Both the position numbers and the translations under genes were made by a program. Under the pieces are notes generated by a model, which made no database searches, was not told the DNA's origin, and worked only from the letters and a program-made list of their open reading frames with translations. This document shows positions 6,353 through 59,891 of a stretch of 64,000 bases of DNA, piece by piece. The stretch is taken from positions 10,912,856 to 10,976,855 of the forward strand of contig NC_090418.1 of the NCBI RefSeq assembly GCF_036365525.1. The letters run 5' to 3'. Origin of the DNA: Heterodontus francisci (lineage: Eukaryota). Positions within the stretch are counted from its first letter, which is position 1. Each line of letters begins with the position of its first letter.

Positions 6353-9203
6353 ATGGGGGATTTTGTAATGAGGGGTTTGTTCCCAGTGCTGGTGTTAGTT
6401 GGAGTTGTCTGTTGTTCTGATACTTGGCAACAGTTTCGACACCAGAGGTTTCCATGGAGAAGAGTAAAAGCCACCCCTGTGCCTCAGAGAGTCCCTCCAA
6501 CTGGGTCTCCCTTTGGTTCCCATTTCCGTGTGTCTGAGGGCCGAAGTGTGTCTCCACTGCAGACTGTGATGGTGCAGTGTGGAGAGCAGAACCTGCTGGT
6601 CAGGGTCCAGATGGATTTATTTGGAACCAGGCACCTGATTAAAGCTGCTGACCTGACCCTGGGGACAGCAGGTTGTCGGCCAACCAGGATCTACTCTCAG
6701 AACCACACTGTCCTCTTTGACTATGGGCTCCATGAGTGTGGCAGCAGATTGCAGGTAACGTTGACTCTTGTTCTAACCTTGGTGATTGTTCCCCACTGTT
6801 CATTCTGACACTTGGTGAATCCCATTGATGCTTGTTTCCTACTTTATAAAACCACAAGCAGCATTCAATTATCCAGTGGGCCTTGCTTAATCTTGTAGCT
6901 CCTATTCTCCCCAACTTTGATTATCTACCCCATTGGCCTTGAACGTTTATTGGTATTCCTCCATCTTGATTTGTGAATTTTCACCTTTATTGCCCTTCAT
7001 TTGGGTCACAGATTGAATGTTAAGCTTGAAGCTTCAATTTTATCTAATCTATTTGCTATTATAAGTTAGCACTAAGAATTGAGCTGTAGTATACTAAGGG
7101 GGACCCCACATTTCCTTTCCCTGTGAACAGAACACATGGGTGCAAATTACAGTCCATTTATGGCTCCTTTCATTGTTAAAATATCAACTTTTTTGCTTGT
7201 TGCAATCTCTTCACACTATCTACTGAGACTTGACACTAGCCCATGAACAAAAGTCTAGTTCAACCACTGGAGTCTGCTTGACCATTCAGGGATTTTGGGG
7301 ATTAACTTCTACGTTTACTCTGTTTACTACCCTTGTGTGCCTCGATTCCTCTCGTGCCCCAAATCTTGCCTGTCTTGAATATCATTAAGTAGATCTGACT
7401 TAGTTGGAATAATCCAAATGCTTTATAATTCTCTAGACATTTCTTTGCTCTGACCTAAATGCCTGACCCTTTGCCTAAAAGTGGCCCTAGGTCTGGATAC
7501 TCCAGCTGGGGGAAATGGTATCCCAGCATCTAGCTTTTCATTCCCTGTGGAAATGCAATCTCTCCAAATTTTATTTTGAACTGAGCATAATCTCCATTTC
7601 AGACCAGATTGTCATTCCTTTTACCTGATTTCTTTCAGATGGCTGGAGATTTCTTGGTCTACACCACCCACCTGAACCACACCCCCCAGTATCATGGATC
7701 TGTCATTGTGAGAACAAATGGAGCTGTCATTCCCATTGAGTGTCATTATTTTAGGTGAGAATATTTACCTGATTGTAGATATGATCTGGAGATGGGTTTT
7801 CTCAATTTGTCCTAAAATGACTCTCCCTCCTTTCCAGGAAGGGCAATGTGAGCAGTAACCCCATCAAGCCCACCTGGATCCCATTCAGCTCCACCAAGTC
7901 TGGAGAAGGGCATCTGTCATTCTCACTGCGCCTAATGAATGGTATGTGATGGGTGGATGGGGAGTGATTTCCTGTACTCACCCACTGGGAGTTGTACCCA
8001 CTGTCTCCAACCCTTGTCCTCTTGTACTTCAGATGACTGGCTTACAGAGCGCACCTCGACTGTCTACTACCTGGGTGACCTCATTCACATTGAGGCCTCT
8101 GTTTCAATGACCAACCACATGCCCCTGAAGCTCTACATTGACCGCTGTGTAGCTACATTGAGCCCGGACAAGGATTCCACCCCGAGATACAGCATCATTG
8201 ACTACAATGGGTAAGGAGGTCTCTACTTTCTCCAGCTGCTCCCATCTCAATGGCTTCACTTTATTCACTTCATGTCCCTTTTTGAATCTTTCTCCAGTTG
8301 CCTCCTGGACAGCAAAGCTGAGGACTCCTTTTCAACTTTCATGTTGCCAAGAGACGAGCGTGAGCTGGACAAGCTCCGGTTTGACCTGGATGCTTTCCGC
8401 TTCTTTGGAGATGACCGTTCCTTGGTAAGTGTAATCTGATCATTGGGGTTTCCATGTTGGGGGGAGGGGGGTTTGGAAGTCACTAAATAATTTGTTGAAA
8501 TGTGTTGTGTAGATTTTCATCACCTGTCACCTGAAAGTTGCTCCAGTGGATCGGAGAGATTCCATGAACAAAGCTTGTACTTTCCAGAAGATGCAGAATG
8601 TGTAAGTTCCCTTTCTCTTGGTGTGTTGTATAGACATGTGATGGACAACCTGGTTGATCAACTGTTTCTCTTGTTTAGCTGGACCCCATTGGATGAATCC
8701 AACAATGACATTTGTGCCTGTTGCCATGTGGGTAACTGTGGTGTGACAAGGGAGTTCCGATTTCCTTCCAGAGGAAGGAGGGATCTTGTACCTGAAGCTG
8801 GTAGGACATTGATCCTCTAGATGTGGGAGATCTCCCTTTATCCCCTCTAACTGGCATGTTTGATATTGCAGAGAGTGAAGCTGGATTGAAGTGGGAGGGT
8901 GAGGCCTCACTTGGACCCCTGGTCATTCTGGATACTGAGGTAACTGACCTGGCAACTGAGTCCTTGAATGAGATTGAGCGAAGGCTGCAGGAGAGGTCTC
9001 CAGGTGGTGAGTTGGCTGACTGCTAGTTTCCATTTTCCCTTCAGTGTTTCCTTCACTAACCATTGGTTTCTCATTGCTTTGTAGGTGTGGAGTCTGAGGT
9101 GGTCCTGATTGTGGCCCTGACTGTGACAGCTGTCTGTCTGATCTCTGCTTCATTGATTGCCTTGTTCCTGTACAGGAAACACAAGCAAACTCTGATCAAC
9201 TAG
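6353..9203 (+). CDS. ZP3: Zona pellucida sperm-binding protein 3 (ZPC), copy 1. Exons 6353-6754, 7639-7754, 7838-7941, 8033-8210, 8298-8424, 8513-8601, 8679-8800, 8872-9006, 9085-9203; ~463 aa
   Basis: All introns are GT-AG with matching phases. Signal peptide ([13 protein letters not shown]); ZP-N ([31 protein letters not shown]); linker PTWIPF; ZP-C ([44 protein letters not shown]); ZP3 Cys cluster [10 protein letters not shown]; furin site RGRR; hydrophobic patch LGPLVIL; C-terminal TM helix. AATAAA at 9217. Alternative in-frame ATGs at 6332 and 6368. Confidence 0.95.
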
Positions 9204-12132: not shown

Positions 12133-13189
12133 CTTGAACCGTGCGGATTTGGGACTCCAAAGTTAGAGATGATAAAGTGGGATGTGGAAAGTGGCAGTGA
12201 CCTCACTCCGTGTCCCAAAGCCCCCTTGTCAACTTTTGGAGCTGTAGTTTCTGCTCTCATGGACTTACAATCTCACCTCACTTTATTTTAGATGAGAATT
12301 GAGGATGAAACACAATTCCCACAACATTGAGAAATAATAAAAAGGGGAAGAGAGTTTCAATCTGGCAGTGGTAATTAGAGTAACCAAAGTGGGTTTTAAA
12401 ACCTGATGATTGTCAGAGGACAGAACGACTCTGGGAGATAAGGAGTCTCCGAGCTTTGAGATTATGGGGTCAAATCTGTCAATGCCACCATTGTCTAGAT
12501 TCCAAAATATTGGGGAAAGAGGGAAAGTCAGTCAGGGTCTATGTTTGATCTGATTATAATCTTGCCATAATTTGGGACAGATCCCCCTCTGCTATAAACT
12601 CATCTTTCCAATATTGTTTCCCTTTCTGAAGCCCCAGTTGCTTGGTACAGAATTCCCACATCTGGGGGGACAGCGATGCATTTACAGACAGTAGGCAGAT
12701 TACATTGCCTTGTAAAGGAGGCAGGTTTTGCAGCTGAGAGAGGAAGACACTTTTCACAGCTGATAAATCTTTCCCAAATATGTCTATGTTGAAAACATAG
12801 TTTCCCATTGGATCTCTGTAGGGAGCTGTGCCCAAACTCACAGCACGTGTGTTCTCCTTTCTATCTGCTATCCAGCTGATATCCCGCTTCAGTAAAATAT
12901 CCAGGTTGCTCTCCAGTGGTTTGAATACGCCTCCTCTGTGAACGATTCTCCTGCCCGGCAGCACTGTGTCAATTACGGTTCTGTTCAGGAATACCGACCT
13001 CACTTCATCTGGTTGCAGGGAGATCGGTTCCCAATATTCAGCCCCACTTTTCTTCATGTTACTGATCAGCTCACTCTTCAAAGTGGGAACATTTATTGAT
13101 GGAAATCGAAGAGAAATCAAGGACTGGAAACAAAAGATATCGGGGAAAGGATTAGTGATGAAATGTGAGATGAGGATTAAATATTAAAT

Positions 13190-16100
13190 ACATGAAATTT
13201 GATGCAAAGTGATACATTTTGGTCAGGAGCACGAGGAGAGGCAATACAAAATAAAGGGTACAATTCTAAAGGGGCTTCAGGAACAGAGGGACCAGGGGGC
13301 TATGTGTACACAAATCATTGAAAGTGGGTAATAAGGCACACGGGATCCTGGGCTTTATAAATAGAAGCATTGAGTCGAAAGACAAGGAAGTTATGAAGGA
13401 TCTTTATAAAAATATTAGTTTGGCCTCAACTGGAGTATTGTGTCCAAGTCTTTCTTTTTCTTTTGGGCCTCCTTATCTCGAGAGACAATGGATACGCGCC
13501 TGGAGGTGGTCCGTTCTTTGTGAAGCAGCGCCTGGAGTGGCTATAAAGGCCAATTCTAGAGTGACAGACTCTTCCACAGAGAAATTTGTTTGTCGGGGCT
13601 GTTGCACAGTTGGCTCTCCCCTTGCGCTTCTGTCTTTTTTCCTGCCAACTACTAAGTCTCTTCGACTCGCCACATTTTAGCCCCGTCTTTATGGCTGCCC
13701 GCCAGCTCTGGCGAACGCTGGCAAATGATTCCCACGACTTGTGATCAATGTCACAGGATTTCATGTCGCATTTGCAGACGTCTTTATAGCGGAGACATGG
13801 ACGGCCGGTGGGTCTGATACCAGTGGCGAGCTCGCTGTACAATGTGTCTTTGGGGATCCTGCCATCTTCCATGCAGCTCACATGGCCAAGCCATCTCAAG
13901 CGCCGCTGGCTTAATAGTGTGTACAAGCTGGGGATGTTGGCCGCCTCAAGGACTTCTGTGTTGGAGATGCGGTCCTGCCACCTGATGCCAAGGATTCTCC
14001 AGAGGCAGCGAAGATGGAATGAATTGAGACGTCGCTCTTGGCTGACATACGTTGTCCAGGCCTCGCTGCCATAGAGCAAGGTACGGAGGACACAGGCCTG
14101 ATACACTCGGACTTTTGTGTTCCGTGTCAGTGCACCATTTTCCCACACTTTCTTGGCCAGTCTGGACACAGCAGTGGAAGCCTTTCCCATGCGCTTGTTG
14201 ATTTCTGCATCTAGAGACAGGTTACTGGTGATAGTTGAGCCTAGGTAGGTAAACTGTTGAACCACTTCCAGAGCGTGCTCGCCAATATTGATGGATGGAG
14301 CATTTCTGACATCCTGCCCCATGATGTTTGTTTTCTTGAGGCTGATGGTTAGGCCAAATTCATTGCAGGCAGCCGCAAACCAGTCGATGAGACTCTGCAG
14401 GCACTCTTCAGTGTGAGATGTTAAAGCAGCATCGTCAGCAAAGAGGAGTTCCCTGATGAGGACTTTCCGTACTTTGGTCTTCGCTCTTAGACGGGCAAGG
14501 TTGAACAACCTGCCACCTGATCTTGTGTGGAGGAAAATTCCTTCTTCAGAGGACTTGAACGCATGTGAAAGCAGCAGGGAGAAGAAAATCCCAAAAAGTG
14601 TGGGTGCGAGAACACAGCCCTGTTTCACGCCACTCGTGAATAGGATAGGATAGGAAAGGGCTCTGAGGAGGAGCCACCATGCTGAATTGTGCCTTTCATA
14701 TTGTCATGGAATGAGGTGATGATACTTAGTAGCTTTGGTGGGCATCCAATCTTTTCTAGTTGTCTGAAGAGACCACGTCTGCTGACGAGGTCAAAGGCTT
14801 TGGTGAGATCAATGAATGCAATGTAGAGGGGCATCTGTTGTTCACGGCATTTCTCCTGTATCTGACGAAGGGAGAACAGCATGTCAACGGTCGATCTCTC
14901 TGCATGAAAGCCACACTGTGCCTCAGGGTAGACGCGCTCGGCCAGCTTCTGGAGCCTGTTCAGAGCGACTCGAGCAAAGACTTTCCCCACTATGCTGAGC
15001 AGGGAGATTCCACAGTAGTTGTTGCAGTCACCACGGTCACCTTTGTTTTTATAGAGGGTGATGATATTGGCATCGCGCATGTCCTGTGGTACTGCTCCCT
15101 CGTCCCAGCACAGGCAAAGCAGTTCATGTAGTGCTGAGAGTATAGCAGGCTTGGCACTCTTGATTATTTCAGGGGTAATGCTGTCCTTCCCAGGGGCTTT
15201 TCCGCTGGCTGGAGAATCAATGGCATCACTGAGTTCTGATTTGGTTGGCTGTATGTCCAGCTCATCCATGACTGGTAGAGGCTGGGCTGCATTGAGGGCA
15301 GTCTCAGTGACAGCATTCTCCCTGGAGTACAGTTCTAGGTAGTGCTCAACCCAGCGGTCCATTTGTTTGTGTTGGTCAGTGATTACGTCCCCTGATTTAG
15401 ATTTGAGGGGGGCGAGCTTCTTGATGGTTGGCCCAAGAGCTCTCTTCATGCCATCATACATTCCTCTGATGTTTCCGGTGTCTGAGGCCAGCTGAATATG
15501 ACTGCATAGGTGTTGCCAGTAGTCGTTTGCGCAGCGCCTGGCTGTTCTTTGTGCAGTACTTCTGGCTGCTTTAAGTGCTGCGGATGTTAAATCGCTGGGG
15601 GCTTTCTTGTAGTTCAACAGTGCAATGCGCTTAGCGGCTATGACAGGTTCCAGCTCTTCATTATGAGATTGAAACCAGTCTGCATTTCTCTTCGCACTTT
15701 TGCCGTGGGTGGTCAAAGCTGACTCATAGATGGCGTCTCTGATGTGGGCCCACTTGGTCTCAGCATCCCCTGTGGGAGTGTTTTGAAGGGTTGTTACAAG
15801 TGAATTTAGAAATTTTTGTAACAGCTGTGGGTGAGAAATTCTGCTCGTGTTGATGTGCGGGTGGCCCTTCTGCTTGGAATGATGCAACTTCTTTGGTCTG
15901 AGTCTAACCTTGCTGCACACCAGGGAGTGGTCGGTGTCGCAGTCTGCACTGTGGAAGCTGCGTGTGATTTGAACACTGTTTAAGGCAGCTCACCTTGTGA
16001 CAATGAGGTCTAGCTGGTGCCAACGACGCGATCTTGGGTGCCTCCATGAAACCTGGTGACAGGGTTTAGTGTGAAAGAACGAGTTGGTGATGCAGAGGTT

Positions 16101-16740
16101 CTGATCGGTACACAACTCAAGCAGTCTCTGCCCGTTCTCATTCATCCTTCCAACGCCATAGCGCCCAAGGCAGGAGGGCCATGAGTCATGGTCGGCCCCA
16201 ACCCTGGCATTAAAGTCCCCCAGCAGGAATAGGTGTTCGGTGTTGGGGATGCTGCTAATGATGTTATGGAAACATTATGGAAACTTTATAAAAACATTAG
16301 TTTGGCCTCAACTGGAGTATTGTGTCCAATTCTGGACACTACATTTAGGAAGGATGTGAAGGCTTTAGAGAGGATGCAGAATAGATTTACAAGAATGGTT
16401 CCAGGGATGAGGAACATCAGTTACGTGGATAGATTGGAGAAGCTGGGGCTGGTCTCCTTAGAGAAGAGAAGGTTGAGAGGAGATTTGATAGAGGTGTTCA
16501 AAATGATGAGGTGTTCAAAATGATGAGGGACATCAGTTACGTGGATAGATTGGAGAAGCTGGGGCTGGTCTCCTTAGAGAAGAGAAGGTTGAGAGGAGAT
16601 TTGATAGAGGTGTTCAAAATGATGAGGGATCTAGACAGAGTAGACAGGGAGAAACTGTTCCCATTGGCAGAGGGGTCAAGAACGAGTGGACAATGATTTA
16701 AAGTGAATGGCAAAAGAACCAAAGGCAGCATGAGGAATTA
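13190..16740 (+). mobile_element. CR1 3' remnant split by an RTE insertion (13190-13447 and 16284-16740)
   Basis: The uninterrupted homolog is at 41030-41775. A ~98-bp tandem duplication is present at 16414-16627. Confidence 0.8.
13448..16260 (-). mobile_element. RTE-clade LINE (BovB/RTE-like), 5'-truncated, relatively young
   Basis: APE motif LLGDFNARVG near 16200. ORFs 14625-15920 (FIDLTKAFDLV) and 13426-14628 (KQGCVLAPTLF, LLFADDAAL, RRLRWLGHV, C-terminal Zn-finger remnant). A-rich 3' tail at ~13450; flanked by a 46-bp direct repeat. Confidence 0.92.
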
Positions 16741-16844
16741 TTTTTGAACATTCTAGAATCCAACAGCACAGAAGGAGGCCATTCTACCCATCAACCCTGT
16801 GCCGACTCTCCAATTAGTCCCACTCCAGCCTCCCACGTTTTCAT

Positions 16845-16970
16845 TCAATTTTCTCAATGTTTGGGGCCTTGGATAGTGAGGCGAGAGGAGGTAAATGGGC
16901 AGGTATTACACCTCCAGCAATTGCAGGGGAAGGTGACATGGGACAGGGACGAGGTGGTGGGGGTAATTTT
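16845..16970 (-). mobile_element. Penelope-like fragment
   Basis: Homologous to 42545-42665. Confidence 0.6.
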
Positions 16971-17029
16971 CCCAATGTGAAGACAGTTGCAACCCACCCA
17001 GGACTGGATGTTCTACAAGCAGGCTGACT

Positions 17030-18000
17030 ATACAGAGGCAGAGATACTGGAGAGCTAGGTATCATCACTGTGTCTGTGAAACCTGATATCCTGTCTCCAG
17101 ATGATGCTGTAGAGAGGTAGCATGGAAATAAAGAATAGGAGGGGGCGAAGGATAGATCTTTGTGGGGTCCTGGGGGTAATGGTGTGGGGTTTGGAAGAGA
17201 AACCAGTCCTGGAAGTACTTTGGTTACGATTGGGTTTCTGGGTTAAGATAGGGAGGAACCTCAGGGGAGGTTTGGCTTGGTGGGGAAGGGGTGATATGCC
17301 AGTGGCAGCTGAACAGATGCTTAATATTTTCCTGCCCAGGCCTGGCGATGGACGGAGAAACCAATTGTGTGCCAGTTACATTGCAGTCTGCTCCCATTGG
17401 ACTTGAGATGGGTGAAGATGTGGGTCACACCCGGACGAACCAGGGTGAGAGAAAGAGTTTGACCTGGTGCAGGGAGACAAAGATGGAAATGAGAGAGTGA
17501 TTGAGCAGATCGCCAGCTGCAGAAGTGTTAGAGTGAATGGATGGCCAAAGGCTAGACAATAGGGAGTTTAAAAGTGCCACTGTGAATGGAGTGTGGGAGA
17601 GTTTCATCCAGGGTGGATATCGCAATGACTGATGTTGGAATGGAGTTGGGAGATTGCAAGTGGTGAGTGATACGAGGAAGTGATCAGAAATGGTTTTGTC
17701 TGTGATGGAGATGAAGGGATTCGAGAGATTATGAGGGACGGCAAGGTCGAGGGAGTGGCCATGGAGATTGGTCATTAATTTATATGGAAGCAGAGGTTAA
17801 GGGAGGATCGGGAGGGAGTGAAATGAGAGGAGAGAGGGTACGGGCAGTTGAGATATAGTTTGAAATCACTGAGGACGAGGAGTCACCTAGTGCAGAGGCT
17901 GAGGGAGAGACGGAGTGAGGGGATCTCAGAGTGAGGTTTGGGTGGATGGCGGAGGACGTGGATTTTAAAGAAGAGGTGATAGGGGTGGAACAAAGTGAAA
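17030..18000 (-). mobile_element. L2/CR1-group LINE remnant (endonuclease region)
   Basis: HGHSLDLAV...ISDHFLV APE motifs in ORF 17425-17775; duplicated at ~48430-49150. Confidence 0.7.
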
Positions 18001-18454
18001 GAGTAAAAGGAGGAGAAGGTGCCAGAGGGGATGGGGTGGAGACCAAGGTCTGAGTTGGTGAGACCTCTGCACGGCCAGCATAATGAAAGGAGCTTGACAT
18101 AACTTACCCCCCTGGTATGGCACATCCTCACTCCCGGCCGATCCATCAGTCGTGTACCTGGTGTTCTCCGGTAAGTGTGGATCCCAAAACCTGTCAGTGC
18201 CCTGGATACAGGAGGGCTGGATGTGAGATGTGTGGAAGGGCAGAGCATGGAGGCAAATAAAATGAACTTTCAATGTAGTAATCTGAAACTGCAACATCAG
18301 TTTCTCCATGGAAACCGACACCCAGGTCCATCTCACCACCACCTCTCTCGACCCCTGTACTGTCTCTAAATTGTCAGACTGCTTGTTCAACATCCAACAC
18401 TGGATGACTAGAAATTTGCTCCAACTAAATATTGGGAAGACCGAAGCCATTGAG

Positions 18455-23400: not shown

Positions 23401-24679
23401 GTGAAGAGAAGCGGCCCCAACCACTACCGATAATGTCAACACTTTGTTTACCAGAACACAACCCATTCAATACGTCAATGATTCCAGGGTCTTCACCTCT
23501 ATCATTCTGTTCAGAAGTCCCAACTAAGTATTGGCCACTCCCTGTTTATCATTCCTGATATCATTCCCAAAGTTACCTTTTACTATCCAAACCTGTGTCG
23601 TTTGTTTAACCGTTTCCATATTGTTCACTATCTTATATATCACAATAAGATCACTGCTCAGGTAGCTCAAACGCCCAAGTCACTCCAATCTTTCCTCATA
23701 ACTCAGACCCTACTGCCTGGGGATCAGTCTTGTGTCTCTTCTCCTCACTGCCTCCGGTGTTTGAATGCCTCACTGGTGTTTCATTGACCAGAACTGAACG
23801 TAGTCCTCAAGCTGTGATCTGACCAGAGTTTGATTGCAATTTCTTGCTGTTCTGATCTATGGAGTTCAACATTGCATTAACCCTCAAATATCGAGGTGTT
23901 AGTGTGGAGAAAGAGAGGGATAGAAAGGACATTGAGAAAAAGTGATAGAGGTTTATTCATAAGGAGAAATCAAACGGACAAACTGGGAGATAGGATCAGC
24001 AGCGTGAGAGAGAAAGATGGCTTACAGAGAAAGAGAATACACAGAGGCAACGATTTCCCCTTTACTGTCTGTGTTACAGAATCTACCTGGTGTCTGGTAC
24101 CCAATAAAACAATTACCTGTAGGAAGCTGAGAGACAGCGCTCCATATTCTCGAATCTTTCTCTGTCGTGTCGAATACTGATCCAACAAACACAGCTCCCT
24201 GCGATCGATGTGCTGGTTAATTTGAATTAGATTCAATGATATTTGGAACAGACCAGCAAACAGCACTCGGCACCCCTTTCAGAGCCTGCAGTCGAGCCAG
24301 TTATATCTCAGAGCAGAGTTTGAAACTGTAGGAAGGGCTGGTAAAAAATACCTGAGGGAATAGATTAGGATTCGTCAGACTTGGCAGCTGGACAGAAAAG
24401 CTTGGCAGTGAGTGAGACAGAATAACTGAGAGAATCTTACCAGCGGGCAATGTGAAGCTGCCATTTGAGAAAAAATGCAAAGTAACTTGTTATTCCTGAT
24501 TGACTGTTCTGATAACAGCACTGTAGTTGGGAAACGAGTTTATCCTGTAACAAGCTCAGTTCAGTTCTAATGAAATAATTCCTCATCATTAGCTTCAATA
24601 TGTGATCCCACACAATGTGTCAATTTAATTCCTTTCATTACACTGCAAGGGAATTGCTCCCATTCCTCTTGGCATTTCC

Positions 24680-28085: not shown

Positions 28086-28089
28086 TTTG

Positions 28090-46300: not shown

Positions 46301-49300
46301 CAGGAACCCCAAGAGAGAAAAGTCTCCTACAGTGAACAAGGTTTAAGAAGAATACTGGGCCCCAATGAAAAGCAAGAATTGCCAACAAGCAAGAACTACC
46401 TATAAAAAGGACGACAGTGAGCTCGAAGCACAGGAACAAGAAATTCTTCTGATATTGCCTCAAACCTCTCCACTTTATTTTTCTTCTGCTCTTTTCTGTC
46501 TCTATTTGCATGTGCGTACGGCTTATGCATGCCAGTGTCGGGCGCGCCTTGTATCAGTAGTCGCTAACCGAATTAGAGTTTAAGTTTAGGTTTTAATAAA
46601 TTTCGCTTTTCTTCTTTAAACCTAAGAAAGCCTGTTTATGCTCATTTCTTTGCCTTATAATTGGAAAGTGGTGAACAAGGATTCACCAAAGGGGGAGCTC
46701 AAAACACAGTGTGTTTAAAATTAAACCCTTGTTACAATAAGACCAGGTGACGGCTGAGATAAACCCCTAGACATCTTTCTCACCTGGTCGTAACAGGACA
46801 AAATTGAACAAAAACAGAGATTTGTGGTGAATGGCTGTTTTTCAGACTTGAGAGGGGTATACTGTGGTGTTCCCCAGGATTCAGGACAAGAACAACTGAT
46901 GTTTTTGATACCATTAATGACGTAAAATTGCAGGTAGAGGGCACGGTTTTGGAATTTGCAGTGGATGTGAAACTTCTTCTAAATGGTACACACTGCTGCC
47001 ACTGTGCATCGGTGCAGGAGGGAGTGAATGTTGAAGGTGGTGGATGGGGTGCCAATCAAGCGGACTGCTTTGTCCTGGATGGTGTCGAGCTTCTTGAGTG
47101 TTGTTGGAGCTGCACCCATCCAGGCAAGTGGAGAGTATTCCATCACACTCCTGACTTGTGCCTTGTAGATGGTGGACAGGCTTTGGGGAGCCAGGAGGTG
47201 AGTTACTTCCCGCAGGATTCCTAGCCTCTGACCTGCTCTTGCAGCCACGGTATTTGTATGGCTACTCCAGTTCAATTTCTGGTCAATGGTAACCCCTGGG
47301 ATGTTGATAGTGGGGGAATTCAACAACCGTATTGCCATTGAATGTCAAGGGGAGATGGTTAGATTCTCTCTTGTTTGAGATGTCATTGGCTGGCACTTGT
47401 GTGGCCCGAATGTTACTTGTCACTTATCAGCCCAAACCTGGATATTGTCCAGGTCTTGCTGCATCGGGACACGGACTGCTTCATTATCTGAGGAGACACG
47501 AATGGTGCTAAACATTGTCCAATCATCAGCGAACATCTCACCTTATGATGGAGGGAAGTTCATTAATGAAGCAATGTCACACGGACACTTTCACCATTCC
47601 TCCACGACGATCACAGCAACAATCTCTGGGCTCTAACAATTAGTGAGATGATGGCTATCTAAAGAAAATGGTCCTGAGCAGAACAAGATACGATATAGGC
47701 CAATTAACGAGGAACGATGCAGCCAGATTTATATCGGCTTCCATTTTTGAGGAGACTGGATCAAAAGGTGCAGATGTTGTACCCGACTGTGACAAACTAG
47801 CAACGAATCCTTTGATCGGTTTTGATCCAATTCCTCTGTAACTGACAGACAAAGTTTTACCCTCAATATTAATGTGTTTATTACTGATATCACAGAGTGA
47901 TTTCAGCTTCACTGATTTTGGTTGTAAATTATTTTAAATGGAGACAAGTGAAATTGTGATTTAAACTGGATTGATGCAAAGTGTAATCTAATAATCTATA
48001 ACAGGATTATTTTCAAAATTCTAAAAGGAACTCACCACTCGACTGTTCCGTTTTGCTAAAATGACCATTCGGTTTCTCTCTTTGAGCCAGTGGTGGTAGG
48101 TGCTTGGCAAGTAATCTGTCTCGTTGACAAGGAGGGAGAGAACCTGCTCAAAATCCTCTTCTGTAGCCTGGGAAAAGTCCAGGTCTAACTCTGAGTACTT
48201 GACACATAAATAAAAGAAAAAGATTAATATCACAGCTGAATATAGCATGAGGTTTGGCTTCTGATTTACAGGCGGAATGCGATGATCCCAGGCCTCAGGG
48301 GCTGACAGTCACTCAGGCACCAAGTGCAGAGTTTCGTTTGATTCGATAGTTCATGTCTGCGTCTATAGATGGTAATTGAGTTAACAAACATGAAGAGCAA
48401 CAACACGTATCAAGCAACATTGATATATGGGGAAGGGGTGATATGCCAGTGGCAGCTGAACAGATGCTTAACATTTTCCAGCCCAGGCCTGGCGATGGAC
48501 GGAGAAACCAATTGTGTGCCAGTTACATTGAAGTCTGCTCCCCTTGGATTTGAGATGGGCGAAGATGTGGGTCACACCTGGAGGAACCACGGTGAGAGAG
48601 AGAAAGAGTTTGACCAGGTGCAGGGAGACAATGATGGAAATGAGAGAGTGATTGAGCAGATCGGCAGCTGCAGAAGTATTAGAGTGAATGGATGGCCAAA
48701 GGCTAGACAATAGGGAGTTTAAAAGTGCCACTGTAAATGGAGTGTGGGAGAGTTTCATCCAGGGTGGATATCGCAATGACTGATGTTGGAATGGAGTTGG
48801 GAGATTGCAAGTGGTGAGTGATACGAGGAAGTGATCAGAAATGGTTTTGTCTGTGATGGAGATGAAGGGATTCGAGAGACTATGAGGGACGGCAAGGTCG
48901 AGGGGGTGGCCATGGAGATGGGTCATTAATTTATATGGAAGCAGAGGTTAAGGGAGGATCGGGAGGGAGTGAAATGAGAGGAGAGAGGGTACGGGCAGTT
49001 GAGATATAGTTTGAAATCACTGAGGATGAGGAGTCACCTAGTGCAGAGGCTGAGGGAGAGACGGAGTGAGGGGATCTCAGAGTGAGGTTTGGGTGGATGG
49101 TGGAGGACGTGGATTTTAAAGAAGAGGTGATAGGGGTGGAACAAAGTGAAAGAGTAAAAGGAGGAGAAGGTGCCAGAGGGGATGGGGTGGGGACCAAGGT
49201 CTGAGTTGGTGAGACCTCTGCACGACCAGCATAATGAAAGGAGCTTGATATAACTTACCCCCCTGGTATGGCACATCCTCACACCCGGCCGATCCATCAG

Positions 49301-52300
49301 TCGTGTACCTGGTGTTCTCCGGTAAGTGTGGATCCCAAAACCTGTCAGTGCCCTGGATACAGGAGGGCTGGATGTGAGATGTGTGGAAGGGCAGAGCATG
49401 GAGGCAAATAAAATGAACTTTCAATGTAGTAATCTGAAATTGCAACATCAGTTTCTCCATGGAAACCGACACCCAGGTCCATCTCACCACCACCTCTCTC
49501 GACCCCTGCACTGTCTCTAAATTGTCAGACTGCTTGTTCAACATCCAACACTGGATGACTAGAAATTTGCTCCAACTAAATATTGGGAAGACCGAAGCCA
49601 TTGAGCTGAATTTAATGCCGGAGGCGGTGGCCATGACAGTGGGCCGGAAAGCTGGGGGCAACCCCACCGTAAATGATTCCTGGAGCCCCGACACGGCTCT
49701 ATTCCCATCAGGCAATTAACTGCCTGGCATTGGCCACCCGTTCCTTTCAGAGCAGAGATCCTGCATCCAGGAGCTGCCAGCCAATTGGAGGGCCGCCACC
49801 TCACCAGTCGCAGTGGTGACACTGGGAAGAGTGATCACTGCTGGGACTGCACCCGGCCAGGACCAACAAGATGGAACAGGTCCCGGAACCCAGGGAAGTG
49901 GGGTCAGGCTGACCGGGGCCAGTCAGGCTGGGTTGTAAGGGGCTTGTTGGTGAGGGCAGAGTGGAGGGTGTTTCAGTGGGGGCAGCTCTCTCCACCGGGT
50001 GTCCCCTCCATGGGCCACAGGGTGCCCGATCAGCAGGACTCCCACAACCCGAGCCCACATGGAGGACGACAGCTTTTACTGGGTAGACTTCCCACGTGCT
50101 GGAGGGACCCCCAACCCATCGGCCATTGGGGCTCAGGGCGTGAATGCCGTCCTCCACCATCCCCCCCCCGATTGAACTAGATGGAGTCGGGAACGGCGAC
50201 AGGCATTCCACGTCCCACATTCCCTTCCGATTCTACGGCCTCCTACGAACCTACGAATTAGGAGCAGAAGCAGGCCATTCGGCCCCTCGAGCCTGCTCCG
50301 CCATCAATAAGATCATGGATGATCTGTTTGTGTCTCGAATTCCACACTCCCATCTAACCAGATTATCTTTGATTCCCTTACCTAACAATATTCAATGACC
50401 CCGCCTCCACCATCTCCTGAGGCAGGGAGTTCCACAGTCGCACAACCCTCTGAGAGAAAAAAATTTTCCTCCTCTCTGTTCTAAAAGGGTGACCCCTAAT
50501 TTGAAAACAGTGCCCCCTAGCTCTGGACTCACCCACATGAGGAAACATCCTTTCCACATCCACCTTGTCAAGACCGTTCAGGATCTTATATCCTTCAATC
50601 AAGTCTCCCCTCACTCTTCCAAACTCCAGTGAAAACAAGCCCAGTCTGTCCAACCTTTCCTCAGAAGACAACCCACTCATTGCAGGTATCAATCTAGTGA
50701 ACCTCCTCTGAACCCCCTGCAACACATTTACATCATAATAAAGGAGAGCATTCCATGAGCCTTCTTTATGACTTGCTCTGCCTGTGTGAGTCTTGTGACT
50801 GAGGATAATCAAGGTTTAGTTGTATCTAAAGTCTAGTGTTACTTTTAAGTGGAAAATTAACTTAACAGTTGCTGTTTGGGTTGGAGAAGGTGAGTTTTAG
50901 ACTAGCTTTAAACAGAGTTCACTCAGGCTCTGCTTGCAGCTGCACCTTGTTCATTAGATAATTGGCTGAAACCAGTTTTCAGGGACTCGAGTCAGACAGT
51001 ATAAAAGTGGGCCATCTTACAGTACTGACTTTGCACTGGAGTGCTGACTTGGGTTGCATTAGAGTGCTGAAGTGTGAGTTTTGTGACTGAGGGAGTTCGG
51101 TGAGGAGGGAGTGAGGAGCTCCTTTCATTTCCTACCTGTCCTCAAAGGGTGTGAGGGGAGCCGAGAGATTCCACATAGCACAGCTGACTGGTGAGTAAGT
51201 CCTGGTGGGTATTTTTCAACCTGGATTGAATTGTAAGTCATTGTTTTAGCAAGACTTAGTTGAATGATTTTTTTTTACTATGATGGTCTTCTAAAGTTTT
51301 AAATTGAAAGGGTTTAGTCAAGGCAGGAGAGCTTAAAACCGTGGGTTGCTCCTCTTGCTGCATGTGGGAATCCGGGAACATTTCCAGTCCCCGGGACCAG
51401 CATGTGTGCAGCAAGTGTGTCCAGCTGCAGGTCCTGGAAGCTCGGATTTCAGAGCTGGAACGGCGGCTGGAAACACTGTGGAGCATCCGCGAGTCTGAGA
51501 GCATTGTGGATAGCATGTATAGAGAGGTGGTCACACCGCAGCTGAAGGGACTTGAGGAAGGAAGGGAATGGGTGACCACCAGGCAGTCCAAGAGAATCAG
51601 GCAGTGAGTTCAGGAGTCCCCTGGGGTCCCGCTTGCAAATCGGTATTCCATTTTGGAGGCTGATGAGGCTGGTTCCTCCAGGGAACGCGGACCGAGCCAA
51701 GCTTCTGGCACCACAAGCAGCCTGTCTGCACAGGAAAGGGGAAAGAGAGGAAGAGCAATAGTAATAGGGGATTCTATAGTCAGGGGAACAGATAGGCGCT
51801 ACTGTGGCCGTCAACGTGACTCCAGGATGGTGTGTTGCCTCCCTGGTGCCAGGGTCCGGGATGTCACTGAATGGCTGCAGGGCATCCTGAAGGGGGAGGG
51901 TGATAAGGCAGAGGTCATGGTACATGTTGGTACCAACGACATAGGTAGAAAGAGGGATGATGTCTTGCATCAAGAATTCAGGGAGTTAGGCAGTGGACTA
52001 AAAAGCAGAACCTCTCGGGTTGTAATCTCTGGATTACTCCCAGTGCTAGCGAGTATAGAAATAGGAGAGGCAAAATTTGGTTAGGAATAGTCAGCATGGC
52101 TTTGTCAGAAGGAGGTCATGCATCACAAATTTGATTGACTTTTTTGAGCATGTGACCAGGTGTGTAGATGAGGGTAGTGCAGTTGACGTAGTTTACATGG
52201 ATTTCAGCAAAGCCTTTGACAAGGTCCCACATGGGAGCAAATGCACATGGGATACAAGGTAACTTGATAAGGTGGATTCAAAATTGGCTCAGCTGTAGGA

Positions 52301-55300
52301 GACACAGAGTGATGACAGACGGTTGTTTTAGTGACTGGAAGCCAGTGTCCAGTGGCCTACCACAGGGATCTGTGCTGGGTCCCCGACTGTTAGTCATCTA
52401 TGTCATTTATATAAATGACTATGTGGGGGGTAGGATCAGTAAGTTCGCGGATGACACAAAGATTGGACGAGTGGTTAACAGTGAGGTTGAGTGTCTTGGG
52501 TTAGAAAATGGGGAAAAAAGTAGCAGATGGAATTTAACCCTGAAAAGTGTGAGGTGATACACTTTGGAAGGAGTAATGTGACATGGAAGTATTCAATGAA
52601 TGGCCTGACACTGGGAAGTTCCGAGGAACAAAGGGACCTTGGCGTGTTTGTCCATAGATCTCTGAAGGCAGAAGGGTAGGTTAATAGGGTGGTGAAAAAG
52701 GCATATGGGACACTTGCCTTTATCAATCGAGGCATAGATTACAAAAGCAGGAAGGTCATGTTGGAGTTGTACAGAACTTTGGTAAGGTCACAGCTGGAGT
52801 ACTGTGTGCAATTCTGGTCGCCACATTATAGGAAGGATGTGATTGCACTGGAGGGGGTGCAGAGGCGATTCACCAGGATGTTGCCTGGGATGGAATATTT
52901 ACTATGAAGAGAGGTTGGATCGGCTTGGGTTGTTTTCGCTGGAGCAGAGAAGACTGAGGGGTGACCTGATTGAGGTGTACAAGATTATGAGGGGCATGGA
53001 CAGGGTGGATAGGGAGCAGCTGTTCCCCTTAGTTGAAGGGTCAGTTACTAGGGGACACATGTTTAAGGTGAGGGGCAGGAGGTTTAAGGGGGATTTGAGG
53101 AAGAACTTTTTTACCCAGAGGGTGGTGACGGTCTGGAATGCACTGCCTGGGAGGGTGGTAGAGGCAGGTTGCCTCACATCCTTTAAAAAGTACCTGAATG
53201 AGCACTTGGCATGTCATAACATTCGAGGCTTTGGGCCAAGTGATGGCATATGGGATTAGGTAGACAGGTCAAGTGTCTTTAATGCATCGGTGCAGACTCG
53301 ATGGGCCGAAGGGCCGAAGGGCCTCTTCTGCGCTGTATTATTCTGTGATTCTGTGATGTGGCACTTTGTCAAATGCCTGCTGGAAATCCAAGTACAGTGT
53401 GTCACTGGGCTCCACTTTGTCCACAGCACATGTTACTCCTTCAAAGCACTCCAATAAATTGGTTAAACATGATTTCCCTTTAACAAGCCATGCTGACTAT
53501 TCCCGATTACCTTGAGTTTTTCAAAGTGCCCAGCTATAGTCTCCTTAATGATCCATTCTAACACCTTCCCCATGACAGACATCAAGCTAACTGGCCTATA
53601 GTTACCTGTTTTCTGCCTCCTCCCCTTCTTGAAAACAGAGGTTATATTCGCGACTTTCCAGTCTGGTGGAACCTTTCTAGAATCCAGCGAAACTTTGAAA
53701 AATTAACACCAACCCATCTATGACCTCATTAGCCACCTCTTTTAAGACCCTCGGATGAAGCCCATCAGGACGCAGGGACTTGTCAGCCTCCCACCGCCTC
53801 ACTACCCATTCCCGTCAGCTAGTTTAAATTCCACCCATTGTCCTCGGTTCCCACCATAAACTCCTCTCCCTAGCTACCAACTCCCTAGTAACTGCCTGAG
53901 GTTGAACCAGACTGTTCACAACATCAGTGTCATATTTAACCCCAAAATGAGCTTCCGACCACATCTCCGTACCATCACTAAGACTGTAACATCAACTGAC
54001 TCCGCCACTGTCTCAGCTCATCTGCTACTGAAACCCTCATCCATGCCTTCATTGCCTCTAGACTTGACCATTCCAACGCTTTCCTGTTCTACCCTCGGTA
54101 AACTTCAGCTCCGAACTCGCACCGACTCCCATTCACACTTCATCCCTGTGCTCACTGATCTACTTCGGCTCCCAGTTTAGCAACAACTCGATTTGAAAAT
54201 TCTCATCCTTGTTTTCAAAACCCTCCACAGCCTCGCCCCTCCCTATCTCTGTAATCTGCTTCAGCTTCAAGATCCTCTGAGATAACAACACTCTTCCAAT
54301 TCTGGCCTCTCCACCATTCCTGACTGTAATCGCTCCACCGTTGGTGTCGGTGCCTTCAGCTGCCGAGGTCCTAATCTCTGGAATCCTCTCCCTAACCCTC
54401 TCCGCCTCACTACCTTCCTTTCCTCCTTTAAGTCACTCCTTAAACATCGCTCTTAGACCAAGCTTTCAGTCACCTGTCCTAATATCTCTTTATATGGCTC
54501 GGTGTGGTATGTTCCTTTACAACACTCCTGTGAAGCACCTTGGCTCATTTAGATCATCGTGAAGAGAAGCGGCCCCAACCACTACCGATAATGTCAACAC
54601 TTTGTTTACCAGAACACAACCCATTCAATACGTCAATGATTCCAGGGTCTTCACCTCTATCATTCTGTTCAGAAGTCCCAACTAAGTATTGGCCACTCCC
54701 TGTTTATCATTCCTGATATCATTCCCAAAGTTACCTTTTACTATCCAAACCTGTGTCGTTTGTTTAACCGTTTCCATATTGTTCACTATCTTATATATCA
54801 CAATAAGATCACTGCTCAGGTAGCTCAAACGCCCAAGTCACTCCAATCTTTCCTCATAACTCAGACCCTACTGCCTGGGGATCAGTCTTGTGTCTCTTCT
54901 CCTCACTGCCTCCGGTGTTTGAATGCCTCACTGGTGTTTCATTGACCAGAACTGAACGTAGTCCTCAAGCTGTGATCTGACCAGAGTTTGATTGCAATTT
55001 CTTGCTGTTCTGATCTATGGAGTTCAACATTGCATTAACCCTCAAATATCGAGGTGTTAGTGTGGAGAAAGAGAGGGATAAGGGCAGGATAGAAAGGACA
55101 TTGAGAAAAAGTGAGAGAGGTTTATTCATAAGGAGAAATCAAACGGACAAACTGGGAGATAGGATCAGCAGCGTGAGAGAGAAAGATGGCTTACAGAGAA
55201 AGAGAATACACAGAGGCAACGATTTCCCCTTTACTGTCTGTGTTACAGAATCTACCTGGTGTCTGGTACCCAATAAAACAATTACCTGTAGGAAGCTGAG

Positions 55301-55633
55301 AGACAGCGCTCCATATTCTCGAATCTTTCTCTGTCGTGTCGAATACTGATCCAACAAACACAGCTCCCTGCGATCGATGTGCTGGTTAATTTGAATTAGA
55401 TTCAATGATATTTGGAACAGACCAGCAAACAGCACTCGACACCCCTTTCAGAGCCTGCAGTCGAGCCAGTTATATCTCAGAGCAGAGTTTGAAACTGTAG
55501 GAAGGGCTGGTAAAAAATACCTGAGGGAATAGATTAGGATTCGTCAGACTTGGCAGCTGGACAGAAAAGCTTGGCAGTGAGTGAGACAGAATAACTGAGA
55601 GAATCTTACCAGCGGGCAATGTGAAGCTGCCAT
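40393..55633 (-). CDS. NAT16: NAT16 / histidine N-acetyltransferase (HISAT)-like GNAT, copy B. Exons 55610-55633, 49259-49352, 48036-48190, 42004-42216, 40393-40962; ~351 aa
   Basis: LDFSQATEEDFEQVL..DYLPSTYHHWLKERNRMVILAKRNSRV|VALVSAHIVDDGQTAAMEALNVHPSERGKGIGRLI follows the NAT16 pattern and includes the acetyl-CoA motif RGKGIG. The last exon has YWEP and YRIDMFGKD. Splice phases are consistent. Exons 3-5 are well supported; the two small 5' exons (MAASHCPL; GTDRFW..PYQG) rest on splice-site and phase fit only. Confidence 0.8.
41030..41775 (+). mobile_element. CR1 3' remnant in the last NAT16-like intron
   Basis: ORF 41157-41537 plus a CR1 3' UTR (GGGCTGAATGGCCTCCTTCTGTGCTG). Confidence 0.8.
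42545..43260 (-). mobile_element. Penelope-like element fragment
   Basis: YKPTDSHSYLDYTSHPASCKDSIPFSQFLRLRRICSD and FPCNRRRCNTCPF, typical of the PLE RT C-terminus and linker. Confidence 0.8.
43262..46795 (+). mobile_element. Gypsy/Ty3 LTR retrotransposon, degenerate (gag, protease, partial integrase, 3' LTR)
   Basis: Gag coiled coil and YELVPEAYNQKFR; protease ILRDTGASRSL; integrase Zn-binding HAGIRKTKARIRQQFDWP..YCRSCHV. No RT is visible and the 5' LTR is missing. Confidence 0.85.
45850..46795 (+). repeat. LTR (~946 bp)
   Basis: Begins TGTCA after the purine-rich GGGTGTGGAGG tract, ends TAACA, and has an internal AATAAA at ~46595. Confidence 0.7.
46975..47575 (-). mobile_element. Non-LTR retrotransposon fragment (same family as 38927-40300)
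   Basis: IYKAQVRSVMEYSPLAWMGAAPTTLKKLDTIQDKA. Confidence 0.8.
50800..53357 (+). mobile_element. CR1 with ORF1 esterase (duplicate of 19650-22200)
   Basis: Same ORF set at 51341-53259 with the same disablements. Confidence 0.9.
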
Positions 55634-55849
55634 TTGAGAAAAAATGCAAAGTAACTTGTTATTCCTGATTAACTGTTCTGATAACAGCAATGTAGTTGGG
55701 AAACGAGTTTATCCTGTAACAAGCTCAGTTCAGTTCTAATGAAATAATTCCTCATCATTAGCTTCAATATGTGATCCCACACAATGTGTCAATTTAATTC
55801 CTTTCATTACACTGCAAGGGAATTGCTCCCATTCCTCTTGGCATTTCCT

Positions 55850-56250
55850 CGCTGATGAAGATTTTGGGAAGGTTGTACCCACCGGTTGCAGGCAAGCTGG
55901 TGGTTGGTCAGGCCTTTCCGTCATCAGCAGATTCTCCCACAGTGGGTACAAGTGAAGGTGTAGTGGCTGCTGGGGGTAATTGGATCTATCCTTCTCCTCC
56001 TTTTCTCTTTCATGCTGGTTCTTCGCTCAGTCTCAGAGGTGTCTGTAGCCCTCTTGATGTAGCATCTCCAGGCATCACGATCTATGGTCTGCACTTCCCA
56101 CTGGCGATGGTCGATGTGGCACAGAGAGAGGGACTTCTTCAGGGAGTCCTTGAAACATTTGCATGGGGCCCCTCTGTTCCTTTTATCAGTGGTCAGCTTC
56201 CCGTATACCATGATCTTGGGCAGGCGACTGTCGTCCATCCAGGCAACATG
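55850..56250 (-). mobile_element. RTE 3' end left after a 2.7-kb deletion
   Basis: Matches 24680-25080, then switches to the homolog of 27814 onward. Confidence 0.85.
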
Positions 56251-56747
56251 ACCCCCCCACTTCCCAGAGGGAGCGGTTTCTCCAACAAAGCCCCTCATGA
56301 TGTTGAACACCTCGATTTAAATCTCCCCTTAACCTTCTCTGCTCCAAGGAGACCAATCCCAGCTTCTCCAGTCTCTCCACATTACTGATTCCCTCATTCC
56401 TGGTATCATCCTGAAACTCTGACCCCTCTCCAATGCTTTGACATCTTTCCTAAAGTACGGTGCCCAGAATTGGACTCAATGCTCCAACTGAGGCTTCACC
56501 AGAGAGTTGTTTGAAAAAAAGAAAGTCTTGCATTCATATAGCACCTTTCACGAGCACAGGACATCCCAAAGCGCTTCATAGCCAATAAAACAACTTTTGA
56601 AGTGTAGTCGCTGTTGTAATGGAGGAAACATGGCAGCCAATTTGTGCACAGCAAGATCCCACAATCAGGAATCTGACATTGGCCAGATAATTCTAGATTA
56701 TTGTTTGAATAGTTTCCGTCAAAATGAGCAATCGTGGAGCTGATTTG

Positions 56748-56932
56748 TGTCAGGTGACATGGGGAAACTCAGAGTCACTCCTATTGGTCTAAATAAAATA
56801 GGCCCGCCTGGCAATGAATCCATGGGTTCTGCCATTGGGTGTAAATTGTGGAGATTGGGGCTGGTTAATTGGTTCAATGTTGCTGCTTCTGGGATCATTG
56901 GTGTCAGGTGACTGCAGTTTGTGTGTATAAAA
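56748..56932 (+). promoter_or_regulatory. ZP3 copy 3 proximal promoter
   Basis: CAGGTG at 56751 and 56905, ATTGG cluster, TATAAAA at 56926-56932. Confidence 0.7.
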
Positions 56933-56976
56933 GGAGTTGGTTGGTGGGTGAAGGGATGGTTGAGTTGTTTGGTATC

Positions 56977-59891
56977 ATGGGGGATTTTGTAATGAGGGGT
57001 TTGTTCCCAGTGCTGGTGTTATTTGGAGTTGTCTGTTGCTCTGATACTTGGCAACAGTTTCGAGACCAGAGGTTTCCATGGACAATAGTAAAAGCCACCC
57101 CTGTGCCTCAGAGAGTCCCTCCAACTGGGCCTCCCTTTGGTTCCCATTTCCGTGTGTCTGAGGGTCGAAGTGTGTCTCCACTGCAGACTGTGATGGTGCA
57201 GTGTGGAGAGCAGAACCTGCTGGTCAGGGTCCAGATGGATTTATTTGGAACCAGGCACCTGATTAAAGCTGCTGACCTGACCCTGGGGACAGCAGGTTGT
57301 CGGCCAACCAGGATCTACTCTCAGAACCACACTGTCCTCTTTGACTATGGGCTCCATGAGTGTGGCAGCAGATTACAGGTAATGAGTCCTTGACTCTTGC
57401 TCTAAGCTGGGTGTATAGATTGTTGCTAACTCTTCATTCCAATACATTGTGAAATGTCATTGAGATGTCCGTCTCCTGCATTATCAAACTTCAATCTTGT
57501 TAGTTGTGTATTGTACTTTGTTTTATCCAGTCTCTCCTTCTTTCCCACCTTGTATTATCAGCCCAATTGGTTTTGAACCTTCTCTTTGGTCTCTTCAAGC
57601 TTTCCTGTTTTTCTTATCCTCATTAATGAGTCTTTTCAGTTCTACTGCCCTTCATTAAACTCAACTTGAATCTTCAGTTTCAGTCCAGTTTTATTTAATC
57701 TGGTTGACTCTTCAATGAACTGAATGAAAAATTAGATTTGATGCCACATTTCCTGCTTTCCCTGTAACTGGATTACGTGCAGCCCTGCTTCAAGACTGGT
57801 TTATTTCAGGGCTCTAAATTGCTGTAACTTGTGGCTGTTAAGGGAATGGCCCAAAAGGACAGCTTCACTTTTATTTTGTTTAGTTCGTGTGCTCACAGTC
57901 TCTCCTTTTTTACTTGTGTTAATTCTCCAGAGCAACATGCTGTACAGCCCCTCTAGCTGCTTTTAAGATTGTGCTTAAACCTCTCCTCAAATTCCATGTC
58001 CTCATCTCATTCTGATTCACTTTATGCCCAAAAAGATATCCATCCATCTTGAATATCATCCATGAGGATTTGTCTGTCTCGGGTAGAGAATTCCAAAGAT
58101 TCATGGTTTTTTGAATGAAGCTTTTTTTAATCATGTCAACTGCAAGTGACCCTGTATCTGAGTCTACACTTCTTAATTTTACTAGTCAGTTGGGGAACTG
58201 ACTCAGCACTACCCTGTCAAGCCCACTAAGAACTGTTTTGTTAGGATCACTTCATTCTTAACTCCTGTACAGAGTATTTTCCTTTTTTGGTCTGATCTCC
58301 CTGCTTCAATATGATGTCTTTCAGATGGCTGGAGATTTCCTGGTCTACACCACCCACCTGAACCACACCCCCCAGTATCATGGATCTGTCATTGTGAGAA
58401 CAAATGGAGCTGTCGTTCCCATCGAGTGTCATTATTTTAGGTAATAGATGAGTGATTTTTATTAATGAATTTTCAGTCCAATGCAAGTTCTCTGAAGTTG
58501 TCCTAAAATGACTCTCCTGTCCTTCCAGGAAGGGGAATGTGAGCAGTAACCCCATCAAGCCCACCTGGATCCCATTCAGCTCCACCAAGTCTGGAGAAGG
58601 GCATCTGTCATTCTCTCTGCGCCTAATGAATGGTATGTGATGGGTGGATGGGGAGTGATTTCCTGTACTCACCCACTGGGAGTTGTACCCACTGTCTCCA
58701 ACCCTTGTCCTCTTGTACTTCAGATGACTGGCTTACAGAGCGCACCTCGACTGTCTACTACCTGGGTGACCTCATTCACATTGAGGCCTCTGTTTTAACG
58801 ACCAACCACATGCCCCTGAAGCTCTACATTGACCACTGTGTAGCTACATTGAGCCCAGACAAGGATTCCACCCCGAGATACAGCATCATTGACTATAATG
58901 GGTAAGGAGCTCTCTGCTTTCTCCAGTTGGTCCCATCTCAATGGCTTCACTTGATTCAATTCATGTCCCTTTTTTGAATCTTTCTCCAGTTGCCTCCTGG
59001 ACAGCAAAGCTGAGGACTCCTTTTCAACCTTCGTGTTGCCAAGAGACGAGCGTGAGCTGGACAAGCTCCGGTTTGACCTGGATGCTTTCCGCTTCTTTGG
59101 AGATGACCGTTCCTTGGTAAGAGGAATCTGATCATTGGGCCCTCCATGTTTGGAGGGAGTCACTAAATGACTTGTGTTGAAATTTATCCCTCAGATTTTC
59201 ATCACCTGTCACCTGAAAGTTGCTGCAGTGGATCAGAGAGATTCCATGAACAAAGCTTGTACTTTCCAGAAGATGCAGAATGTGTAAGTTCCCTTTTCTC
59301 TCCTGAGGGATGTTGTATGAAAAGGTGATGGACAACCTGGTTGAGCAACTTTCTCTTGTTTAGCTGGACCCCATTGGAGCAATCCAACAATGACATTTGT
59401 GCCTGTTGCCATGTGGGTAACTGTGGTGCCACAAGGGAGTTCCGATTTCCTTCCAGAGGAAGGAGGGATCTTGTACCTGAAGCTGGTAGGACATTGATCC
59501 TCTAGATGTGGGAGGTCTCCCTTTACCCCCTCTAACTGGCATGTTTGATATTGCAGAGAGTGAAGCTGGATTGAAGTGGGAGGGTGAGGCCTCACTTGGA
59601 CCCCTGCTCATTCTGGATACTGAGGTGACTGACCTGGCAACGGAGTCCTTGAATGAGGTTGAGCGAAGGCTGCAGGCGAGGTCTCCAGGTGGTGAGTTGG
59701 CTGACTGCTAGTTTCCATTTTCCCTTCAGTGTTTCCTTCACTAACCATTGGTATCTCATTGCTTTGTAGGTGTGGAGTCTGAGGTGGTCCTGATTGTGGC
59801 CCTGACTGTGACAGCTGTCTGTCTGATCTCTGCTTCATTGATTGCTTTGTTCCTGTACAGAAAACGCAAGCAAACTCCAGTTCTCCAATGA
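56977..59891 (+). CDS. ZP3: ZP3 (ZPC) copy 3. Exons 56977-57378, 58325-58440, 58529-58632, 58724-58901, 58990-59116, 59195-59283, 59364-59485, 59557-59691, 59770-59891; ~464 aa
   Basis: Open frame, canonical splice sites, all ZP cysteines, RGRR, TM helix, tail [18 protein letters not shown] at 59894. Confidence 0.95.

Follow-up and report, generated by a model that had tools for sequence, protein, structure and literature searches.

A HisAT-like acetyltransferase gene probably co-amplified as a passenger in the ZP3 array of the horn shark Heterodontus francisci

In catfish, ZP3 and ZP4 have undergone tandem gene amplification and are expressed only in the ovary, according to the accessible part of PMC13704971. 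Human NAT16, which encodes the histidine N-acetyltransferase HisAT, is a single-copy gene located between MOGAT3 and VGF (accessible part of PMC12219266), whereas its relatives in the horn shark Heterodontus francisci (hereafter NAT) are multi-copy and lie within an array of ZP3 egg-coat genes. We analysed a 64,000-nt stretch of this shark's genome (the window), which consists of DNA rich in long interspersed nuclear elements (LINEs) and carries the order ZP3(+), NAT(-), ZP3(+), NAT(-), ZP3(+). Like the teleost ZP3/ZP4 arrays, as far as the catfish source just cited describes them, the horn-shark array has grown by tandem or segmental duplication and comprises many near-identical copies per genome; it differs in that its genes belong to a shark ZP3 lineage amplified across elasmobranchs and in that some units carry an unrelated enzyme gene. 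The "histidine N-acetyltransferase-like" arrays of the catsharks S. canicula and S. torazame are also multi-copy, belong to the same shark NAT clade and have lost the same residue, Trp246 of HisAT, but they represent an independent expansion on a chromosome other than that of the ZP3 array.

The genes of the window are as follows.
6353-9203, plus strand: ZP3-1, intact, 9 exons, 462 aa, the older copy, with a Pfam ZP-N match
12554-13123, minus strand: NAT-A exon 5, which encodes Hisat_C in an open frame and has 14 nt changed relative to NAT-B
18108-18201, minus strand: NAT-A exon 2
24117-24145, minus strand: NAT-A exon 1 with the ATG, facing away from ZP3-2
28553-31468, plus strand: ZP3-2, intact, 9 exons, 463 aa
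40393-55314, minus strand: NAT-B, intact, a NAT16/HisAT-like double-GNAT gene with 5 GT-AG exons, 355 aa
55314-55286, 49352-49259, 48197-48036, 42216-42004 and 40962-40393, minus strand: exons 1 to 5 of NAT-B
56977-59891, plus strand: ZP3-3, intact, 9 exons, 463 aa

These exon models bear out the alternating order and strands proposed in a first-pass annotation of this DNA, and also its statement that NAT exon 1 faces away from the next ZP3, which holds for both copies. Both NAT-to-ZP3 junctions in the window are thus head to head, with 4.4 kb between the two start codons in unit 2 and 1.66 kb in unit 3. That annotation had weighed a co-regulated oocyte module against the alternative that NAT is a passenger of ZP3 amplification, and the alternative fits better. 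We consider it probable that unequal crossing-over within the horn-shark ZP3 array carried NAT along as a passenger, in a lineage-specific co-amplification.

Both genes lie inside blocks of about 99% identity that include NAT exons 1 and 2, the spacer and ZP3, and the pair was therefore duplicated jointly and recently. The segment 17281-25090 is 98.8% identical to 48428-56259 (70 mismatches in 7809), and a second block reaches the edge of the window.
56249-64000, no strand: repeat block, 98.5% identical to 27814-35589 (83 mismatches in 7749), in a unit that continues past the window end
The units are 22-28 kb long, and units 2 and 3 are about 1% divergent (0.1-2.4% per kb). Differences this small are also what collapsed or duplicated haplotypes would give, and an assembly artefact could then account for the youngest units or for the exons missing from NAT-A. 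We regard this as very improbable, since the units have their own insertions and deletions, one of them with a target-site duplication, the three ZP3 genes match three distinct annotated models (possibly the same locus), and ZP3-1 is 4.5% diverged at silent sites.

One of the two NAT genes in the window is without its catalytic exons and all three ZP3 genes are intact, which favours the passenger reading and speaks against a module. NAT-A retains exons 1, 2 and 5 only, and a blastn search (word size 7) found no second copy of NAT exons 3 and 4 anywhere in the window. Because these exons encode the acetyl-CoA-binding GNAT domain, NAT-A is predicted to be unable to yield an active enzyme; joined, its three exons preserve the frame and encode 230 aa. 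The intact gene pair implied by the first-pass annotation therefore stands for the three ZP3 genes and NAT-B and falls for NAT-A, so that only one of the two NATs can encode the GNAT domain. Two features occupy the region between exons 5 and 2 of the truncated copy.
13452-16283, minus strand: RTE-type LINE in NAT-A intron 4, class assigned from its open reading frames and RVT_1 from Pfam
16744-17281, minus strand: NAT-A junction zone, with no counterpart to NAT-B 41586-42443 (exon 4) or 42667-48427 (exon 3)
The LINE is young, nearly full-length and flanked by a target-site duplication of about 44 bp, and it is absent from NAT-B. The place of NAT-B 42667-48427 is taken in the junction zone by 314 bp unique to NAT-A. 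The 5' block of NAT-A differs from NAT-B by 0.9% and the exon-5 block by 3.3% (32/972), and the greater divergence of the latter suggests that NAT-A joins a young and an older unit. Downstream of NAT-A, 9852-9929 matches the C-terminal 26 aa of the public protein model 885 at 96%, which indicates that the 3' flank of NAT-A is shared with a unit holding a full NAT core. NAT-A itself is without public annotation.

The ZP3 genes present a different picture. All their introns are GT-AG and their reading frames are open, exon 1 matches Pfam ZP-N, and the proteins are 97% identical to ZP3-like proteins carrying PF23344 and PF00100. Read by eye, the translations have a hydrophobic N-terminus, a CACC motif, an RGRR site and a hydrophobic C-terminal stretch; by sequence they possess the signal peptide, ZP-N and ZP-C, Cys-rich subdomain, furin site and C-terminal transmembrane segment of a ZP3. 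ZP3-1 differs from the other two copies at 39-40 of 1386 coding bases, with a silent-site divergence (pS) of about 0.045 and a ratio of replacement to silent divergence (pN/pS) of 0.39-0.41 (binomial p 0.008-0.014), a purifying signal. Of 1389 coding bases, 17 distinguish ZP3-2 from ZP3-3; these changes comprise 13 replacement and 4 silent ones (pN/pS 1.05), unlike the purifying signal seen against ZP3-1. The same proximal region is kept upstream of all three copies.
6074-6352, plus strand: ZP3 proximal promoter region
It contains CAGGTG E-boxes at about -226 and -72, 6-7 CCAAT/ATTGG boxes and TATAAA at -51, motifs that we take to be oocyte-type ZP promoter elements. Upstream of ZP3-1, similarity to the other units ends 280 bp 5' of the ATG. 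The 6 kb preceding ZP3-1 contain no NAT exon 1. Further upstream, sequence similar to an open reading frame at 34-348 (plus strand) gives part of the N-terminal extension of the public ZP3 model 886; the frame has no Pfam match and is presumably a hAT-type transposase-like fragment.

Beyond the window, units were counted via public protein models only. The best protein matches come from H. francisci, from models that share one contig of 19,484,767 bp, with 26 ZP3-like and 8 NAT-like ones among the matches listed. Models 898, 899, 900 and 901 correspond, in the order of the window, to ZP3-1, ZP3-2, NAT-B and ZP3-3; NAT-A has no public model at its position. This agreement supports taking accession order as gene order, which is otherwise inferred; the four may be the window locus itself and thus not independent support. 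From 899 through 900, 901, 902, 903, 904 and 906 to 907, ZP3 and NAT alternate, so that the count of cassette units which the first-pass annotation had proposed gives four alternating ZP3/NAT pairs by accession. Judged from these models, the pair would have been amplified at least four times, and most ZP3 copies would be without an adjacent full NAT model. The alternating ZP3 models (899, 901, 903 and 906) form one subclade (Shimodaira-Hasegawa-like approximate likelihood-ratio test, SH-aLRT, 89.9), in a tree in which the horn-shark copies are not resolved as a single clade. This restriction to one subclade, and the excess of ZP3 over NAT models, again favour the passenger reading; the excess also argues against a module. 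The earlier claim of a gene pair amplified as one unit holds for the youngest units. The further H. francisci NATs comprise three young models (883-885) and one divergent one (865). In the seven young public NAT models the N-termini are spurious and largely repeat-derived, in place of the real exons 1 and 2.

ZP3 arrays of this lineage are spread across sharks and rays, with some ZP3 genes also on small unplaced scaffolds. Heptranchias perlo has at least 13 ZP3 models and one NAT gene was found, all on the same contig of 29,848,070 bp, a pattern that suggests an old linkage in which ZP3 was amplified without NAT. By contrast, ZP3 and NAT lie on separate chromosome-scale contigs in S. canicula (225,974,235 vs 16,133,577 bp), S. 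torazame (376,271,288 vs 36,347,767 bp) and C. maximus (29,173,142 vs 13,014,033 bp). The pairing expected in related species is therefore found only in part: the two genes share a contig in two of the five sharks having both (H. francisci and H. perlo), are separate in the other three, and are interleaved in H. francisci only, as judged by proxy. Both the H. perlo pattern and the separate contigs favour a passenger origin, and the latter count against a module. The NAT tree also favours the passenger, since horn-shark copies (100/100) and catshark copies (100/99) form separate clades; it was built from 32 of the 51 rows after removal of fragments and of rows that aligned badly, and it includes spurious N-termini. 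The two expansions thus appear to be independent, the catshark array lying away from ZP3.

Such independent expansions, one of them off ZP3, are also what would be seen if NAT itself had been selected for copy number as a shark-specific, substrate-switched acyltransferase, both neighbours favouring amplification for unrelated reasons. The long shark stem branch (0.83) and the variable Gly123 position among catshark copies point the same way, as do the 12.5 replacement and 1.5 silent changes between exon 5 of NAT-A and NAT-B. That excess is non-significant (p 0.54), and positive selection on exon 5 is not supported. One window NAT is broken, and the NAT matches listed include none from Chiloscyllium, Hemiscyllium, Stegostoma, Mustelus or named rays, though their ZP3s turned up, so that many lineages seem able to dispense with the gene or to have let it diverge strongly. 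We judge selection on NAT copy number unlikely. The case for linking NAT expansion to egg-laying is weak: further sharks, which we assume to lay eggs, gave no NAT match. Among the shark models, P0032 (S. canicula, 478 aa) has exons 3-4 twice, being either duplicated internally or merged from two copies, and other isoform models omit exon 3 or 4. P0037, a shark-type ZP3 (85% to exon 1) on a 1.4-kb contig filed under Salmonella enterica, is probably database contamination.

NAT-B provides the information on the enzyme. Its exons 1 and 2 were assigned from similarity to shark homologs and splice in frame. Pfam places Acetyltransf_1 and Hisat_C in the protein (Hisat_C E 2.4e-28), an ESM Atlas search returned the Hisat_C family alone, and the sequence matches human NAT16/HisAT (PDB 9EMD/9EMO/9EMP/9EN3) with E 2e-44. 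The H. francisci protein P0167 is nearly identical to it, and its predicted model (predicted local distance difference test, pLDDT, 84.9) matches HisAT 9EMP with a template-modelling (TM) score of 0.82 and a root-mean-square deviation of 2.4 A. The acyl-CoA motif Q/R-x-x-G-x-G/A of the first domain is in exon 4 of NAT-B, the exon missing from NAT-A. In human HisAT, Tyr74 and Trp246 sandwich the imidazole, and archaeal Ta0821 shares this tryptophan (PMC12219266). Active-site residues were compared by alignment alone. NAT-B retains Phe63, Tyr79, Leu124, Val126, Arg131 and Gly134 of HisAT, but has Gly for Trp246, Val without an aromatic neighbour for Tyr74, and Ala for Gly123. At the Trp246 column the 25 rows of the shark set hold 23 Gly, 1 Ala and 1 gap, and 21 of 26 other relatives have Trp. 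Tyr is found at the Tyr74 column in 0 of 25 shark rows; in 10 of them a Tyr/Phe precedes this position by one residue, the loop being shortened, and there NAT-B and the seven young models have Leu. The imidazole-stacking pair is thus not seen in the shark clade, and with its loss the "histidine N-acetyltransferase" label becomes doubtful there. The shark NATs would have kept acyl-CoA binding with a changed or weakened amino-acid site, and NAT-B is predicted to be a HisAT-type double-GNAT that binds acyl-CoA and either acylates a non-histidine substrate or binds histidine poorly. The earlier idea of an N-acetylhistidine or osmolyte product is accordingly doubtful, lacking a biochemical basis. 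Acetylhistidine in sharks received no mention in the literature found by our search, and the accessible parts of PMC4496688 and PMC12219266 do not mention "shark" or "cartilaginous".

Around the exons of NAT-B further elements are present.
43220-46800 (right end approximate), plus strand: broken long terminal repeat (LTR)-retrotransposon-type element in NAT-B intron 3, with SCAN, zinc knuckle and integrase zinc-binding domains
The public NAT models 902, 904 and 907 use a 36-aa pseudo-exon from 46563-46456, so the units likely share this insertion. Short inverted repeat copies, 41706-41754 and 42460-42508 (88% over 49 bp), lie on both sides of exon 4, near the stretch absent in NAT-A. Exon 1 starts Met-Glu; the H. 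perlo and several catshark models start Met-Gly with Ser and Cys close by, which we take to resemble a lipidation signal.

The head-to-head arrangement of both junctions invites the explanation that a ZP3 promoter or enhancer drives the divergent NAT, the pair being amplified because eggs require an acylated metabolite as well as coat protein. The four alternating pairs and the young NAT models with open exons 3-5 agree with this. Co-regulated bidirectional pairs have start sites within about 1 kb and a common promoter. Here the head-to-head spacer is mostly RTE/CR1 LINE fragments, and its length has changed between units.
25090-27814, no strand: LINE-rich spacer of unit 2, lost from unit 3 by deletion, with near-identical 11-bp ends; an RTE open reading frame spans 25090
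An insertion in unit 2 was rejected in favour of this 2.7-kb deletion in unit 3, which brought the two start codons from 4.4 kb to 1.66 kb of each other. The 445 bp 5' of the NAT ATG contain no CCAAT or TATA box. A LINE-filled spacer altered by deletion, and a NAT upstream region without these boxes, favour the passenger reading. Single-cell data on zebrafish ovary (PMC9191896) contain no nat16, nat16l or hisat row in seven supplementary files, a weak point against the module because naming may differ. With NAT-A broken, ZP3 models in excess and the contigs separate in three of five species, the co-regulated module suggested at first is not supported, and we consider it quite unlikely.

Several observations weigh against a passenger origin. 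In unit 3, the deletion has left no more than 1.66 kb between the NAT start and an intact ZP3 promoter. The first-pass annotation had counted on dead NATs in most units to overturn the module, and the annotated models do not show this: seven young H. francisci NAT models (94-100% identity) have exons 3-5 open, so that most annotated copies are not dead, with truncated copies such as NAT-A escaping the public models and hence uncountable. Synteny was judged via shared contig and accession order rather than gene maps, and the two largest ZP3 clusters have 15 of 33 and 15 of 38 members among the matches listed. In eel, 15 genes are raised more than 10-fold in feminized gonads, one of them labelled "histidine N-acetyltransferase-like" (PMC9820629, Table 1), which would suit a module if that gene is orthologous to the shark NAT clade. 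Sequencing data comprised 7 runs from 2 studies, taken to be RNA by guess, of which 4 were compared with 39500-59499, repeats dominating. In run X1, one contig follows the window as far as the final base of exon 4 (42004) and continues with 18 other letters, and a second does so as far as 55285, one base off the exon-1 donor, and continues with 314 other letters; a NAT contig extends to 55492. These ends at NAT-B donors support the exon model and fit splicing of a NAT transcript in this or a related species, so that the family is probably transcribed. Contig cover over the ZP3-3 exon 1 bin was 0.28, 0, 0 and 0, with some over NAT exon bins; missing cover was not used as evidence.

A bolder proposal combines these threads. 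A shark NAT16 clade that switched substrate on losing Trp246 would, in the horn shark, have been captured head to head by a ZP3 promoter, becoming an oocyte gene that was co-amplified and makes a new acylated egg metabolite, with egg-laying catsharks reaching high copy independently. We find this distinctly improbable. Under passenger co-amplification, early sharks would have had ZP3 and one NAT on the same small chromosome; in the horn-shark line the repeat unit would have grown to span both genes and then been copied at least 4 times. NAT-A would have arisen at a junction, its 5' half being young and its 3' half older and stripped of exons 3-4, and ZP3 copy number would serve egg-coat dosage, as in other fish.

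The first-pass remark that no ZP3-NAT16 linkage had been described agrees with the literature searched, which leaves most subscription journals outside it; nothing on this locus was found in the Heterodontus genome and zona pellucida literature, including the accessible part of PMC1845163. As a passenger duplication the locus represents ordinary array growth, and its main use is for annotation, given the spurious N-termini and the unannotated NAT-A. The enzyme is of most interest: a shark "histidine N-acetyltransferase-like" clade that has undergone two expansions and is without a residue conserved between archaea and humans. It allows HisAT substrate specificity, and N-acetylhistidine production in sharks, to be tested cheaply and directly. 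If oocyte co-expression were true, the locus would be a clear case of promoter capture followed by co-amplification.

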